Positions 7,978-50,165 of a stretch of DNA of 64,000 nucleotides are shown here, piece after piece. The stretch spans positions 6,132 through 70,131 of the forward strand of contig JAGBSO010000052.1 in assembly GCA_017631795.1 (NCBI GenBank). Reading direction: 5' to 3'. This DNA comes from Clostridia bacterium. GTDB taxonomy: Bacteria; Bacillota; Clostridia; Oscillospirales; Acutalibacteraceae. The notes beneath the pieces were generated by a model. The model made no database searches. It saw nothing but the letters and a program-made list of their open reading frames with translations, and was not told the DNA's origin. Position 1 is the stretch's first letter. Every line of letters begins with the position of its first letter. The translations under genes and the position numbers were made by a program.

Positions 7978-8012
7978 AATGTCTCAGCTCCAATTATAAA
8001 TAATGATTTGTT

Positions 8013-8187
8013 GAACAATCCGATAATTTCGTGTAGGGGCGGTGTCCCTACCGCCCGATTGTGAGCATAGCGAACAATAACGGCATTGCCGTTTGTTTTC
8101 CTACGGAAAATGCACATTTGTGCCGGGCGTTGAGGACAACGCCCCTACGATATATCAATCAATTCCTGCTTTACTGATTATTGTTTA
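8013..8187 (-). repeat. Type-A miniature inverted-repeat element, copy A1 (REPIN-like core 8033-8148, inverted relative to A2/A3)
   Basis: The core is bounded by GTAGGGGCGGTGTCCCTACCGCCCG and CGGGCGTTGAGGACAACGCCCCTAC. The right terminus CTGATTATTGTTTA is canonical. The left terminus GAACAATCCGATAATTTCG is degenerate. Confidence 0.85.
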
Positions 8188-16896: not shown

Positions 16897-16927
16897 GTAG
16901 GGCGGGATCTCGATAAATTATTGTTTG
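16897..16927. repeat. Remnant of a type-A element (partial REP arm fused to terminal repeat)
   Basis: CGTAGGGCGGGATCTCGATAAATTATTGTTTGAC. This is a GTAGGGCGG fragment followed directly by the canonical terminus CGATAAATTATTGTTT. Confidence 0.6.
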
Positions 16928-27168: not shown

Positions 27169-27323
27169 TTTACCGTCTCCTTGAATCTTTATCATATTTT
27201 TTAAATTATAGCATTTCCGGGGATTTTGTGCAAGATGTAAGATATCTTAATGGGATAAACATTATTACTTCCGGGGGATATTTTGATTTCAGCATAAAAA
27301 AAGACTGAGCGGTTGCTCAGCCT

Positions 27324-27341
27324 TGGTGCGGATGACGGGAC
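27324..27341 (-). pseudogene. Duplicated 3' fragment of tRNA-Leu (last 18 nt incl. CCA)
   Basis: TGGTGCGGATGACGGGAC is identical to 27474-27491. It sits within a ~65-bp direct repeat (27277-27341 versus 27421-27491) that also copies the terminator. Confidence 0.8.
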
Positions 27342-27443
27342 CTGACGGCTGTCGCTTCGCTTTGCCGTCACGGCAACAATTATGTTCGGCTTCGCCGAGA
27401 GTGGGTTCAAGTCCCTGTCTGATATTTTATTTTAATTTCAGCA

Positions 27444-27472
27444 TAAAAAAAAGACTGAGCTTTTGCTCAGTC
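27444..27472 (-). terminator. Rho-independent terminator of tRNA-Leu
   Basis: On the minus strand: GACTGAGC-AAAA-GCTCAGTC followed by T8. Confidence 0.8.
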
Positions 27473-27473
27473 C

Positions 27474-27561
27474 TGGTGCGGATGACGGGACTTGAACCCA
27501 CATGAACTTAGCGTTCACTAGAACCTGAATCTAGCGCGTCTGCCAATTCCGCCACATCCGC
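27474..27561 (-). tRNA. tRNA-Leu (anticodon CAG), type II, CCA encoded
   Basis: Hand-folded. The acceptor stem is GCGGATG/CATCCGC. The D arm is GCG-GAATTGGCAGA-CGC. The anticodon arm is CTAGA-TTCAGGT-TCTAG. The long variable arm is GAAC-GCTAA-GTTC. The T loop is TTCAAGT. Confidence 0.9.
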
Positions 27562-30351: not shown

Positions 30352-30423
30352 GGTCTACCTCCGGAATTTTATAATATAGAATATAATAACATACATTTTT
30401 TTGTTTTTCAATCGATTTTTTAT

Positions 30424-30497
30424 AAACAATAATTTATCGCTTCGCTCTATTCATTTTCAACTTTCAATTTTCAATTTTCCACTACAATAATTTAAAA
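30424..30497 (-). repeat. Type-B element, internally deleted copy (B3)
   Basis: AAACAATAATTTATCGCTTCGCTCTATTCATTTTCAACTTTCAATTTTCAATTTTCCACTACAATAATTTA. This equals the reverse complement of the left half of B1, joined to the right terminus at the GAGCGAAGC repeat. Confidence 0.8.
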
Positions 30498-31155: not shown

Positions 31156-33015
31156 ATGAAAATGAGAATGCCTGCAATACCTCTTATTACGGTTGACCCG
31201 TATTTTTCGGTATGGACAGATAATATAAATGACCACACCCCCTATCATTGGACAGGAAGTGACAATACAATTGTCGGCACAGTCAATGTTGACGGAAATG
31301 TTTACCGTTTTCTCGGTGACAGTGAAGATGACAAACTGAAAGTTGTGTCTCTTGATGCCGATACATTTTCAACAACAGTTGTCTATGAAGGTGCAGGAAT
31401 CAGACTCACTGCAAAATTCACTTCTCCCATGCTTGTCACAGACCTTTATTATGCGTCAAGACCTGTTTCTTATCTGAAACTTTCTTACGAAGCAACTGAC
31501 GGTAAGGAGCATCTTGTTTCTGCTAAAATTTCTGTAAGTGAAGAGCTTGTGCTCAACAAAGCAGGAGAGGGCAGAGCATGGTCAGAAAGTGTTGATACTG
31601 ATGAGCTCACATGGGTCAGAATGGGTAAAGGCAATCAGAAAGTGCTCTGGAGAAGCGGTGACGATGTGCGCATAGACTGGGGTTATTTCTACCTTGCAGT
31701 CAAAGGTGAAGCACAGACAGGCAACGAAGTGCTTGAAGAAGACCTTTATGCTGTTTTCGCAGAAACTGAGCTTGATAACGAAAAGCTTTTCCTTTTTGCT
31801 TATGACGATATCGAAAGCATGGTATATTTCGGTGAGCATCTGAAAGCATACTGGAATAATGACGGTAAAACAATCGAAGAAGCAATCCTTGAAGCTGCGG
31901 AAGATTATGACAGACTGGTGGCAGAATGTGAAGAATTCTCTCAGAAGCTTGTTGCGGAAGCAACTGAAAAAGGCGGAGAGAAATATGCCGAAATGCTTCA
32001 GCTTGCATACCGTCAGGTCATGGCTGCACACAAACTTGTTGTTGATAAAGAGGGTAATAATCTTTACATTTCAAAGGAATGTTTCTCAAACGGCTGTGCA
32101 GCAACAGTAGACGTTACATATCCCAGTGCTCCCATGTATCTTCTTTATAACACAGAGCTTCTCAAAGGTATGCTCAGACCTGTTTTCCGTTATGCTGCAA
32201 CAGAAGAATGGCAGTTTGACTTCGCACCTCACGATGTCGGTCAGTATCCGCTTGTAAACGGTCAGGTTTACGGTCAGAATAAGCTTAAATATCAGATGCC
32301 CGTTGAAGAATGCGGAAATATGATTGTGCTCGTTTCTGCAATCTGCGAAAAAGATAACGACTATTCATTTGCAGCAGAAAACATGGAAGTCCTTGATAAG
32401 TGGAGCAGATATCTTGTCAAATACGGCAAAGACCCCGAAAATCAGCTCTGTACAGACGACTTTGCAGGACATCTTTCTCATAACTGCAACCTTTCACTCA
32501 AAGCAATCATGGGGATGACAGGTTTTGCAAGAATCCTCAATCATTTCGGCAGAAATGAAGAAGCTGATGAGCTTTTCGCAAAGGCTAAGGAATATGCAGA
32601 CTCATTTATCGCAAATGCAAAAAATGCAGACGGCAGCTATCGTCTTGCTTATGACAGAGAAGGCACATTCAGCCTTAAATATAACTCAGTGTGGGATAAA
32701 ATCTGGAAAACTGAGCTTCTGCCTGACAGTTTCTATAAGGGTGAAATCGAGAGATACAAAAAAGAGGCACTGCCTTACGGTGTACCCCTTGATACAAGAG
32801 AAAAATATACAAAGTCCGACTGGCTTATCTGGGCTGCCTGTCTTGCAGATAACAAGGAAGATTTTGAATTCTTCGCAGAGCTTCTCTGGAATGCGTACAA
32901 TACAATGCGTACAAGAGTGCCCATGACAGACTGGTATTATGCAGATACATCAGAAATGGTCGGCTTCAGACACAGAACCGTTCAGGGCGGACTGTTTATT
33001 AAATTAATGATGTAA
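31156..33015 (+). CDS. DUF4965/DUF1793 glutaminase-A-like putative glycoside hydrolase
   Basis: The N-terminus PAIPLITVDPYFSVW and the overall size are typical of this family. The start is ambiguous among 31147, 31156 and 31162. Confidence 0.6.
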   Translation: MKMRMPAIPLITVDPYFSVWTDNINDHTPYHWTGSDNTIVGTVNVDGNVYRFLGDSEDDKLKVVSLDADTFSTTVVYEGAGIRLTAKFTSPMLVTDLYYASRPVSYLKLSYEATDGKEHLVSAKISVSEELVLNKAGEGRAWSESVDTDELTWVRMGKGNQKVLWRSGDDVRIDWGYFYLAVKGEAQTGNEVLEEDLYAVFAETELDNEKLFLFAYDDIESMVYFGEHLKAYWNNDGKTIEEAILEAAEDYDRLVAECEEFSQKLVAEATEKGGEKYAEMLQLAYRQVMAAHKLVVDKEGNNLYISKECFSNGCAATVDVTYPSAPMYLLYNTELLKGMLRPVFRYAATEEWQFDFAPHDVGQYPLVNGQVYGQNKLKYQMPVEECGNMIVLVSAICEKDNDYSFAAENMEVLDKWSRYLVKYGKDPENQLCTDDFAGHLSHNCNLSLKAIMGMTGFARILNHFGRNEEADELFAKAKEYADSFIANAKNADGSYRLAYDREGTFSLKYNSVWDKIWKTELLPDSFYKGEIERYKKEALPYGVPLDTREKYTKSDWLIWAACLADNKEDFEFFAELLWNAYNTMRTRVPMTDWYYADTSEMVGFRHRTVQGGLFIKLMM

Positions 33016-33211
33016 ACAATAATTTAGCGGAATGTTTGAAGAAATTAAAATCGAGCCAGTAGGGGCGATGTCCTCATCGCCCGGCACGAATGTGCATTTT
33101 TCGTAGGAAAATTTAACGGCATAGCCGTTATTGTTCGCTTTGCTCACAATCGGGCGGTGAGGACACCGCCCCTACATGAACATATCAGATTATTCGCTAA
33201 ATCATTGTTTA
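33014..33211 (+). repeat. Type-A miniature inverted-repeat element, copy A2 (REPIN-like core 33059-33175)
   Basis: The termini are AAACAATAATTTAGCGG and CGCTAAATCATTGTTTA. The core arms are GTAGGGGCGATGTCCTCATCGCCCG and CGGGCGGTGAGGACACCGCCCCTAC. Confidence 0.9.
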
Positions 33212-33213
33212 AC

Positions 33214-33247
33214 AAAAATGCCGTCGGTTTTCCGACGGCATTTTTTG
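33214..33247. terminator. Bidirectional rho-independent terminator
   Basis: TGCCGTCGG-TTTT-CCGACGGCA hairpin flanked by A5 and T6. Confidence 0.8.
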
Positions 33248-37330: not shown

Positions 37331-37345
37331 AGAAACACCTCCGAT

Positions 37346-37510
37346 AACAATAATTTTGAGGAGCTAAATTATTGTAGTGGCAAATTGAAAATTGAAAATT
37401 GAAAGTTGAAAATGTATAGAGCGAAGCAGAATCAAGTGCGAAGCACTTCCGAAACTTTCCATTTTCCATTCTCAACTTTCCATTTGAGCGAAGCGATAAA
37501 TTATTGTTTA
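37346..37510 (+). repeat. Type-B miniature inverted-repeat element, full copy B1
   Basis: The left terminus AACAATAATTTTGAGGAGCTAAATTATTGTA forms a small hairpin. It is followed by TTGAAAA-type tandem repeats, a central GAAGCACTTC region, and an imperfect mirror arm. The right terminus is GCGATAAATTATTGTTTA. Confidence 0.88.
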
Positions 37511-37581
37511 TTGTTCCCTAAAGAAAAAATCATAATCCACCCTAAGATGAATTATGATTTTTATTAATTCAAATTATGCAA

Positions 37582-39655: not shown

Positions 39656-39730
39656 ATGTATTCCTCCGTATCAAGAATCACAATCAAATCAAGTATACAA
39701 TATTTGCAGATATTTTTCAATAGCAAAAAT

Positions 39731-39918
39731 AAACAATAATTTATCAAATAAATTAAATGGCATCTTGTAGGGGCGTTGTCCTCAACGCCCGGCACGACAG
39801 TGCATTTTCCACAGGAAAATTTAACGGCAAAGCCGTTCTGCTTCGCAGCGGGCGTTGGGGACAACGCCCCTACTGGCTTGATTGTAATTCCTGCAATTAT
39901 ACCAATAAATTCTTGTTT
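39731..39918 (+). repeat. Type-A miniature inverted-repeat element, copy A3 (REPIN-like core 39767-39873)
   Basis: The left terminus is AAACAATAATTTATC. The core arms are GTAGGGGCGTTGTCCTCAACGCCCG and CGGGCGTTGGGGACAACGCCCCTAC. The right terminus CCAATAAATTCTTGTTT is degenerate. The element lies in the divergent araA/GH2 promoter region. Confidence 0.85.
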
Positions 39919-39981
39919 TTTCTTGATTTAATTTCTGTTTTATGATAATATCCAATTATCATAAACAAAGCAGGTGTTAAA

Positions 39982-43873: not shown

Positions 43874-44311
43874 CTACATAAAACAGTAATATATCACTCC
43901 GAAAACGGAAGCAGCACCGCAGCCGTAAACGATTACAGGTCCTGCGATGGTGAACATTTTTGCACCCGTACCGTATATTTTTCCGTCTGTGGTGTATTCA
44001 AGACCCGATGAAACAACAGCATTCGCAAAGCCTGTTATGGGCACAAGTGTACCTGCACCTGCGTATTTTGCAATCTTGTCAAAAACACCTATTCCCGTAA
44101 GGATTGCTGCGATTACAATCAGCGAAACGGGAATGAGAATTTTTACGATATCTTCTTTTATCCCGATTTTTGTGTAAAGCATTCCGAATGCTTCACCCAG
44201 TGTGCAGATTGCACCGCCGATAAGAAATGCAAAAAGCATATTTTTAAATTTCGGTGACGACGGTGAAGCTTTTTTTGTCATCAGGTCATATTCTCTGTCT
44301 TTTGAAGGCAT
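43874..44311 (-). CDS. spoVAC: Stage V sporulation protein AC
   Basis: I trimmed the ORF to MPSKDREY. FAFLIGGAICTLGE and GAGTLVPITGFANA are conserved in SpoVAC. Confidence 0.85.
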   Translation of the reverse strand: MPSKDREYDLMTKKASPSSPKFKNMLFAFLIGGAICTLGEAFGMLYTKIGIKEDIVKILIPVSLIVIAAILTGIGVFDKIAKYAGAGTLVPITGFANAVVSSGLEYTTDGKIYGTGAKMFTIAGPVIVYGCGAASVFGVIYYCFM

Positions 44312-44409
44312 AATAAACCACTCCTTTTTAATAAATTTACCCGTTTTGCATATTGATATGTATCGGTAACAAAAAATTCGCATATTATTTGAACAGGGGA
44401 GTGGATTTT

Positions 44410-48803: not shown

Positions 48804-50015
48804 ATGGCAACCGATAAGAAGAAAATTTTCAATATAGCGTCAGACCTGGTGTTCAGCATCGCAGGTCTTATGCTTATGAACGGTATGATCCAGTTGCTTA
48901 TCAATCCGATGCTCAATGAGTGGATGGGTGAGGCAGCATTCGGTAATTACCAGTCGATATTTGCAGTCGTATCTATTATGGGTACGACTTTCGGTGTTGC
49001 CGCAAACTATTCGAGAATGGTACGTTCAAGAGATAAAAAGGACACAAACGGTGACTATAACATCTTCCTTGTTGTCATCGCAGTGCTGTGTGTTGCTGTC
49101 GCAGCAGGAACGCTGATTGTCTATAAATCATTCAACGCAGTGCATTTTGTTCTTCTTTCCGTGCTGACGGTTGCAACCGTTCTCAGGTATTACGGTGATG
49201 TAAATTACCGTATGAAGCTCAATTATAAAGGCTTTTTCGTTTATTATGCGATTATAACAGCAGGCTATTGCCTCGGTCTGTTACTCTTTAAATTTGTTTC
49301 ACCCGTATGGATGCTGACAATTCTTGCAGGTGAAGTTGCAGCGGTTGTTTTTGTTCTGTTCAACGGAGACATTTTCAAAGGCAAAAAGATGCTGACACGT
49401 TCAGAACATTTCGGCGGAACAATGAAATCCGTGGGTGTTCTTTCAACCACAAATCTTCTTTCTGCCGTTGCACAGCAGTCCGATAAGATAATTCTCGGTC
49501 TTGCAATGGGCGGTGAAGCAGTAACAACATTCTATGTTGCAACACTTCTGGGCAAAGTCATTTCTCTTCTGACAACCCCCCTCAACGGTGTGCTTATCGG
49601 ATATCTCACAAAATATGAGGGTAAATTCACAAAGAAAATGGTGGTTGTCTTCACTGCAGTGCTTCTCGGACTGGGAATCGTTGCAGTTGCAGGATGTTAT
49701 ATCGCATCGGAAATTTTTGTAAAACTCTTTTACCCCGATGTTTTTGCTGATGCAGAAAAGTATTTTCTTCTTGCAAGTGCAGGTCAGGTATTCTATTTTA
49801 TTTCAAATTGTCTTATGACTGTTATTCTCCGTGTTGCAAGTGAAAAATATCAGATGTACATAAATATTGTGTATATCATTATATATGCGGCAACGGTTAT
49901 TCCGCTTACAATGTCTTTCGGCATCTGGGGTATGACAATTGCCCTGCTTATCACAAACGGTGCAAAGTTTGCGATAACAAGCATGGTGGGAATGGTTAAA
50001 ACCGGTAAACAATAA
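48804..50015 (+). CDS. Wzx-like polysaccharide/teichoic-acid flippase (MOP superfamily)
   Basis: 403-aa protein with about 12 TM helices, in a glycopolymer gene context. Confidence 0.6.
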   Translation: MATDKKKIFNIASDLVFSIAGLMLMNGMIQLLINPMLNEWMGEAAFGNYQSIFAVVSIMGTTFGVAANYSRMVRSRDKKDTNGDYNIFLVVIAVLCVAVAAGTLIVYKSFNAVHFVLLSVLTVATVLRYYGDVNYRMKLNYKGFFVYYAIITAGYCLGLLLFKFVSPVWMLTILAGEVAAVVFVLFNGDIFKGKKMLTRSEHFGGTMKSVGVLSTTNLLSAVAQQSDKIILGLAMGGEAVTTFYVATLLGKVISLLTTPLNGVLIGYLTKYEGKFTKKMVVVFTAVLLGLGIVAVAGCYIASEIFVKLFYPDVFADAEKYFLLASAGQVFYFISNCLMTVILRVASEKYQMYINIVYIIIYAATVIPLTMSFGIWGMTIALLITNGAKFAITSMVGMVKTGKQ

Positions 50016-50165
50016 TTTAGCTGTGCTGAATTATTGTAATTGAAAATTGAAAGTTGAAAATTGAAAATGTATAGAGCGAAGCGGAAGTAAGTGCGTAGCA
50101 CTTCCGAAACTTTCCATTTTCCATTCTCAATTTTCCATTAAGCATAGCGATAAATCATAATTCTG
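50007..50165 (+). repeat. Type-B miniature inverted-repeat element, full copy B2
   Basis: Collinear with B1: AAACAATAATTTAGCTGTGCTGAATTATTGTA, TTGAAAA repeats, a central GCACTTCC region and a mirror arm. The right terminus GCGATAAATCATAATTC is degenerate. Confidence 0.85.

Follow-up and report, generated by a model that had tools for sequence, protein, structure and literature searches.

The window, a stretch of 64,000 nucleotides, corresponds to the reverse strand of a 96,971-bp ENA metagenome contig. Its host is an uncultured spore-forming gut or rumen Clostridium, in keeping with the sporulating low-GC Firmicute of the original prediction: the GC content is about 41%, a SpoVAC/SpoVAEB sporulation gene lies at 43874-44383, and the nearest named proteins belong to Clostridia or Acutalibacteraceae MAGs. 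The window also encodes glycoside hydrolases, a cohesin-domain protein, rpoB/rpoC and rpsL. The non-coding palindromic elements considered here are the following:

About 7998-8187, minus strand: composite 1; one end takes in the TAA stop of GH3 (8185-8187, minus strand), and the other lies some 20 nt upstream of the start codon of GH116 (7977)
8033-8148, minus strand in the alignment orientation: core of unit 1, with arms at 8033-8057 (plus) and 8124-8148 (minus) and a spacer of 66 nt
16897-16926, minus strand: remnant, a degenerate arm end GTAGGGCGGGAT (16897-16908) abutting a copy of the outer motif (16911-16926)
33014-33210, plus strand: composite 2, outer repeat AAACAATAATTTAGCG ... CGCTAAATCATTGTTT with linker inverted repeats; outer-motif matches at 33014-33029 (plus) and 33195-33210 (minus)
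33059-33175, plus strand: core of unit 2, with arms at 33059-33083 (plus) and 33151-33175 (minus) and a spacer of 67 nt
33084-33095, 33096-33112 and 33114-33130: small spacer hairpins of unit 2
33214-33245: intrinsic-terminator-like hairpin directly after composite 2, common to the convergent genes
39731-39918, plus strand: composite 3, with degenerate outer-motif matches at 39731-39746 (plus) and 39903-39918 (minus)
39767-39873, plus strand: core of unit 3, with arms at 39767-39791 (plus) and 39849-39873 (minus) and a spacer of 57 nt

Three full units and a fragment at 16897-16908 had been predicted from the sequence, and all are present: the three cores contribute six arms against none expected by chance, and the fragment is the degenerate arm end of the remnant, beside its outer-motif copy. 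The arm, GTAGGGGCGnTGTCCnCAn'CGCCCG (also written GTAGGGGCGnTGTCCTCAn'CGCCCG), occurs six times in the window, always in head-to-head doublets. These three doublets, with spacers of 57-67 nt, agree with the proposed REPIN arrangement of inverted REPs about 60 nt apart. The pattern GTAGGGGCGNTGTCCNCANCGCCCG returns six window matches at up to three mismatches, with 0.00 expected from 100 dinucleotide-preserving shuffles; the match is perfect for five arms and one base off for the arm at 8033. In all three units GTAG lies on the outer side of both arms, it is 0 nt from the stem in all six arms, and the first four stem pairs are all G/C. The stem-loop consensus is GGGCGnTG-TCCy-CAn'CGCCC. A hairpin with an 8-bp stem had been proposed for each arm, which holds for five of the six (stem GGGCGnTG, loop of 4 nt) but not for the arm at 8033, where the stem has 7 bp and the loop 6 nt. 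The published search rule for REPs (Quentin et al., PMC6006769) requires GTAG or GTGG within 0-2 nt of a fully paired stem; the stem must measure 7-20 nt and the loop 2-5 nt, and three or more of the first four stem bases must be G/C. The window arms satisfy this rule, the arm at 8033 being slightly outside the loop range with its 6 nt, and the REP layout first ascribed to them, GTAG followed by a GC-rich hairpin, fits the published GTAG-tagged class. Dimers with GTAG outside and spacers of 20-100 bp are the commonest REP arrangement (PMC3733652).

The spacers hold three hairpins: GCAC-nnnn-GTGC, AACGGC-nnn-GCCGTT and ATTTTyC-nnn-GGAAAAT. The first two had been anticipated as conserved elements, in the forms GCAC-GAAT-GTGC and AACGGC-ATA-GCCGTT, and were both found; the third adds to them. 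In the three-unit alignment the stems of these hairpins are kept and changes fall mostly in the loops, and the spacer of unit 3 is 10 nt shorter than in the other units. Behind the AACGGC-nnn-GCCGTT hairpin, the third along the spacer (33114-33130, minus strand; 8079-8093, plus strand; 39823-39837, minus strand), the strand opposite to that of the neighbouring genes has a short run rich in T, and a weak terminator-like site is therefore called in all three units. Aligned with their flanks, the units have a mean column identity of 86%, with pairwise identities of 81% (D2) and 92% (I5); recent copying is therefore not evident. A profile made from the units found no additional copy within the 64-kb window, and the further 11 kb of the contig (L048, L055) likewise contained no additional unit. 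All six arms are intergenic and lie in about 75 kb of one contig; with the remnant and a singlet derivative in strain L043, the tally is three doublets, one remnant and one singlet.

Similarity between the copies does not end at the arms. Together with inverted symmetry it extends about 45 nt past each of them, up to an AT-rich outer inverted repeat, AAACAATAATTTAnCG ... CGnTAAATnATTGTTT, which delimits a palindrome of about 190-200 bp; inverted matches between the copies are 77-114 nt long (I1-I3). The unit size of 107-117 bp given at first is thus correct for the core, but the core is not free-standing and sits in a composite of 190-200 bp. In the host species the doublet is nested in this outer repeat, which usually starts at or over a stop codon. 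It covers the TAA stop of the upstream gene in unit 1 (GH3) and unit 2 (a DUF4965/glutaminase-A-like gene, whose stop at 33013-33015 is overlapped by composite 2), and composite 3 is located in the divergent araA/lacZ-like intergenic region. TA dinucleotides flank units 1 and 2 at their outer ends, as they do an L043 cassette at the metallophosphatase site, and are absent from unit 3 and L046. The outer motif AAACAATAATTTAnCG has 13 copies in the window against 1.2 expected, and it bounds unrelated cores as well, at 30422-30494, 37344-37515 and 50008-50150. Since all three units lie inside a repeat common to other cassettes, the outer repeat, and not the REPs, could define the mobile or recombining entity. 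The unrelated cores form a second family in which GAAAATT-like heptad runs face CTTTCCA-type runs, with a recurring T-C mismatch and an arrangement around GAGCGAAGC motifs; the copy at 37344 is kept in strain L043 (16142-16300).

We compared the unit sites with those of strains that are 96-97% identical in the flanking DNA and were recovered via near-identical proteins. Polymorphism of individual copies between close relatives had been named as a check on mobility, and all three sites differ, so the copies are neither syntenic nor invariant, and the refuting outcome named with that check does not apply. Three further assemblies of the same strain (L048-L050) have unit 1 in unaltered form. At its site, downstream of the GH3 gene, L051 carries an outer-repeat hairpin and then a GCAATTA-run sequence, and L052 an ACAATTT-run cassette. 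At the unit 2 site, downstream of the DUF4965 gene, L043 and L044 possess the spacer and the left arm, whose loop has 3 nt, but in place of the right arm they have the right end of another cassette; this cassette, unrelated and of GTTAGAA type, is present in full in L046, L047 and L040. The L043 allele is a chimera, in which the left arm and spacer of the type described here (type A) are joined to the right end of an L046-like GTTAGAA-type cassette at a common CTCAC. Its spacer differs from that of the window at about 6 of 64 positions (about 9%), whereas the flanks are about 96% identical (about 4% different). The unit 3 site (window 39727-39971) lacks the unit in L043 (18524-20959) and L044 (14335-16770), which contain 2.4 kb instead. 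This insert encodes a CAP12-PCTIR TIR-domain protein of 464 aa and an inosine-uridine nucleoside hydrolase and looks like a small defence-type island.

The variation is not restricted to sites with REP doublets: the outer-repeat site at 30424-30494 contains a different cassette in every strain compared (L043 9165-9330, L046 9145-9330, L040 1-30). The cassettes at this site have a common layout of a low-complexity arm, a GC hairpin, CCCrTTTATAAA, a second hairpin and a complementary arm; the L040 contig, which starts inside the site, displays only a bare-looking hairpin, (AAC)AATAATTTAGC-TCC-GCTAAATTATTGTT. An integron attC reading of the cassettes was dropped, their end motifs misfitting RYYYAAC/GTTRRRY and their context being one of housekeeping genes. 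Contig L040 breaks off in the repeat-rich stretch 54 nt beyond the stop codon of the DUF4965 gene, and L051 likewise 77 nt beyond that of the GH3 gene, as expected where multi-copy sequence interrupts assembly. No clean empty site was found among these relatives: those at about 85% identity have rearranged synteny, and those at 96-97% have other cassettes at the same sites.

We scanned one genome per GTDB species with a pattern of 20 fixed bases. The scan returned 35 loci, the window's own genome not being among them, where about one match is expected by chance (2 x 596e9 / 4^20 at equal base frequencies; somewhat higher in GC-rich genomes). The hosts include Clostridiales, Oscillospiraceae and other Clostridia MAGs together with Pseudoflavonifractor capillosus An827 and Acetanaerobacterium elongatum CGMCC 1.5012, and, outside Clostridia, Acidobacteriota, Verrucomicrobiota and Hydrogenedentota MAGs. 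At several loci a window arm recurs as an identical 25-mer. Clostridiales HRGM_1970, Oscillospiraceae SIG436 and two Terriglobia contigs contain doublets in the head-to-head arrangement, 58-80 bp long, whose spacers are unrelated. A metagenome scan with an arm-plus-GGCAC pattern gave a single locus, L042, a doublet with the same arm and the first spacer hairpin. The outer repeat is missing from the doublets of L042, HRGM_1970 and Terriglobia. Some loci have architectures of their own: in Clostridiales HRGM_Genome_1970 the doublets are nested in a longer inverted repeat, TTCGTGAAACGCC ... GGCGTTTCATGAA (L024 1300-1440, L021 3340-3480, L035 1290-1530), and L032 and L008 have tandem arrays of spacer-like units between two arms. 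Searches of mobile DNA were negative: blastn of the unit against plasmid and phage collections gave no match, and the arm pattern had 0 matches in viral contigs.

The arms from these genomes show which structure is maintained. Across 32 distinct arms from many genomes, 98% of stem cells are paired compared with 87% in shuffles, and none of 500 shuffles reaches the observed score. Pair 10:19 (n/n'), which was left free in the search pattern, occurs in all four Watson-Crick forms (AU 11, GC 7, CG 6, UA 2), and four of the eight stem pairs have changes on both sides. The two arms of one unit also differ at the covarying pair, A/T against G/C in unit 2 and G/C against T/A in unit 1. The constrained element is therefore the single REP hairpin, not the pairing of arm with arm.

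The kind of element is thus already known, as a GTAG-tagged REP in REPIN layout, and it is the phylum that is barely documented for it. The closest likeness is with the head-to-head dimers of GTAG-tagged REPs (Di Nocera, De Gregorio & Rocco 2013, PMC3733652), which have a terminal unpaired GTAG, a GC-rich stem of 6-9 bp with a short loop, sub-families arising by complementary stem changes, spacers of 20-100 bp, and positions on the downstream side of coding regions, with co-directional or convergent genes as neighbours. The window units depart from these families in their host of 41% GC and in the nesting of the dimers in an AT-rich outer repeat, and the likeness is one of description, the 24 family consensus sequences being given in a figure. 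That survey covers eight phyla; its main text does not contain 'Firmicutes', 'Clostridi' or 'Gram-positive', and names Bacillus for the Bcr1 MITE only. The REPIN-RAYT systems of Pseudomonas and Enterobacteria (Bertels & Rainey 2011, PMC3116915; E. coli TnpA-REP) likewise consist of an inverted REP pair forming a long hairpin and are non-coding, intergenic and polymorphic between related genomes. They differ from the window units, where the long spacer has three conserved hairpins, the individual hairpin is conserved at the covarying pair in place of arm-to-arm pairing, and no cognate RAYT was found in about 75 kb of contig. BIMEs of E. coli and BOX elements of pneumococcus resemble the window mosaic as intergenic repeats at gene ends that combine a few module types in varying ways, but the modules here are unrelated in sequence and vary at one and the same locus among strains 96-97% identical. 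In the literature searched we found no account of GTAG REPs or REPINs in Firmicutes, which agrees with the earlier view that the architecture is unusual in this phylum; the sequence data do not bear that view out, which is overstated, as identical arms occur in many Clostridia MAGs and two cultured Oscillospirales.

Group 1 RAYTs have been reported in Clostridia (PMC5581495). We looked for a Y1/RAYT gene by four independent searches: tblastn, an HUH...Y regular expression, an HMM built from 40/120 Firmicute RayT-like proteins, and phmmer. None was found in the window and the 11 kb beyond it (about 75 kb of contig), in accordance with the original prediction for the window, nor in any REP-bearing Clostridial locus. 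In all retrieved DNA, matches were confined to L013, a Terriglobia locus, and to the loci of protein P0358. The L013 protein scores 113 bits against the NCBIfam REP_Tyr_transpos cut-off of 80 and lies 2.1 kb from a doublet of the window-arm class; it was rejected as the cognate RAYT, the flanks of its gene being devoid of the window REP class. In viral contigs, a search pattern derived by aligning the L013 protein with an E. coli RayT sequence produced 64 matches, none of which was confirmed.

P0358 belongs to an abundant Firmicute RayT-like family, whose members are real PF01797 proteins with about 75% identity to the RayT-like query sequence that retrieved them. This Y1 protein of 248 aa scores 71 bits, under the 80-bit cut-off of REP_Tyr_transpos, and is identical on at least 23 contigs, two of them from samples that also gave window relatives. 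Many of its contigs are shorter than 2 kb, which suggests an active element in multiple copies. The gene is bracketed by the hairpin GGAGACAAGGGGACGGTTCTCTTGTCTCC and an inverted partner, with extra tandem partial copies upstream (L063-L072, e.g. L064 5800-6800). A Y1/HUH gene between inverted hairpin repeats is the layout of a TIRYT or REPtron, and some of its copies were obtained in samples or sequencing projects that also supplied window relatives. The element is unlike the window units in that its hairpin has no GTAG tag and its host contigs have 33-40% GC. The hairpin GGAGACAAGGGGACGGTTCTCTTGTCTCC was not found in the window, and the family was rejected as the mobiliser of the units since its bracketing hairpin is a different one.

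The units might also act as RNA. Folded as RNA, unit 2 forms one long hairpin closing a multi-branch loop (-67.9 kcal/mol, z = -9.4), and the opposite strand folds equally well (z = -10.6); as single-stranded DNA, the 200 nt at 33014-33213 that hold composite 2 fold with the outer ends paired (z = -10.9). In the minimum-free-energy fold each arm pairs with the other arm of the same doublet. With the terminator-like hairpin at 33214-33245 directly past composite 2, unit 2 falls within the 3' untranslated region of its upstream gene; the terminator-like hairpin is kept in strain L043, and L046 and L047 retain its 5' half only. Two of the three units are probably transcribed with their neighbour genes, as 3'-UTR or intercistronic RNA, and would then be expected to fold very stably. 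A scan of the window against Rfam 15, proposed earlier as a means to exclude a known ncRNA, matched only the tRNA at 27477-27561, both at the gathering score and at E<=1, and the units had no match even at the latter threshold.

Taken together, the observations support a REP/REPIN architecture: the units are non-coding, non-autonomous palindromic elements of the GTAG-tagged REP superfamily, in a REPIN layout around a structured spacer. For their spread we favor a reading in which a RAYT-type enzyme mobilises the single-stranded hairpins in trans and recombination then reshuffles the copies, and we assign it a probability of about 0.5, no higher because such an enzyme was not observed. Each arm, when exposed as single-stranded DNA, would fold into its GC-rich hairpin with the unpaired GTAG at the foot. 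The enzyme acting on that hairpin in trans would be a REP-associated tyrosine transposase of the Y1 (HUH) type, with its gene at another place in the genome; it would cut and rejoin the DNA at the arm, whereby copies could be both spread and removed. The contents of the sites would then be reshuffled by recombination, either among the copies or with the other cassette families bounded by the outer repeat. The RAYT-type transposase, the single-stranded DNA mechanism and any effect at the RNA level are the parts that we infer.

Several other explanations deserve consideration. One dispenses with a dedicated transposase: the outer-repeat palindromes would be resident gene-end structures whose interiors are swapped by recombination, gene conversion or hairpin template switching, the REP doublet being one variant spread in this way. 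The chimeric L043 allele joined at CTCAC is what such exchange would produce, as is a spacer that differs by about 9% between flanks that differ by about 4%, and every compared cassette site differs in its contents while the flanking genes remain 96-97% identical. An outer repeat of 12-16 nt is short for RecA-type exchange, however, and swapping of interiors accounts for reshuffling but not for origin or spread, leaving unexplained both the invariance of GTAG and the identity of the arms with REPs of distant phyla; we regard it as unlikely. Alternatively, the whole composite of 190-200 bp could be an inverted-repeat MITE with AAACAATAATTTAnCG ends, moved by a DDE-type transposase and inserting at TA, with the REP doublet as interchangeable cargo. 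MITE families with common ends but different cores are well known, and the outer motif, at 13 copies against 1.2 expected, brackets both the type-A cores and the unrelated ones at 30422-30494, 37344-37515 and 50008-50150. The TA flanks described above point the same way, but in AT-rich spacers such flanks are weak evidence, and unit 3 and L046 do not have them. Different cores at the same position and with the same left anchor across strains would require repeated independent insertion at one dinucleotide, the doublets of L042, HRGM_1970 and Terriglobia do without the outer repeat, and no retrieved locus contains a transposase or parent element with outer-repeat ends. We regard a MITE, too, as unlikely.

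A conserved structured RNA under host selection (a small RNA, a 3'-UTR stabiliser or an attenuator), as opposed to mobile DNA, would agree with the very stable fold (z of about -9 to -11), with spacer hairpins whose stems are kept and whose variation lies mainly in the loops, and with the position of unit 2 between a stop codon and an intrinsic terminator. All three units also have the same orientation relative to the co-directional neighbour, but three copies are too few to carry an orientation bias. The equal folding of both strands, the lack of any Rfam match at E<=1, the combination of the arms with unrelated spacers in other genomes and the presence or absence of units between near-identical strains, with unrelated cassettes in their place, make this the most improbable of the readings considered. 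A more speculative possibility, which we hold to be doubtful, is that the AT-rich palindromes at stop codons (TAAACAATAATTT...AAATTATTGTTT) serve as fixed docking sites at which structured cassettes are exchanged at high frequency between copies and strains, so that REP doublets could persist without a classical single-copy RAYT. The exchanged cassettes would, on the same doubtful footing, include the GTAG-REP doublets along with the types with heptad-run arms, GAAAATT-, GTTAGAA-, GCAATTA- and ACAATTT-.

To our knowledge, what is understood of REP/REPIN elements and of their domesticated RAYT transposases comes almost wholly from Proteobacteria. The GTAG-REP class is here seen to be common to low- and high-GC Clostridia, Acidobacteriota, Verrucomicrobiota and Hydrogenedentota, down to identical 25-mers, which points to a strongly conserved protein-recognition element. 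Such an element either moves between phyla or is very old, and the Clostridia data offer a test. The part most worth attention is the fast turnover of cassettes at outer-repeat sites: every comparable site differs among strains that are 96-97% identical, which points to an unusually fast process at the gene ends of this lineage. The resulting strain-specific intergenic variation lies beside carbohydrate-utilisation genes and could serve as a source of strain markers; the same repeats break short-read assemblies, as at the ends of L040 and L051. One further variable site lies beside the sole tRNA of the window (27477-27561, minus strand), the 3' part of which is overlapped by a 50-nt direct repeat (27296-27345 and 27446-27495, 90% identical) resembling an integration site; next to this tRNA, L043 and L044 have a serine-recombinase island and L046 has different cargo.
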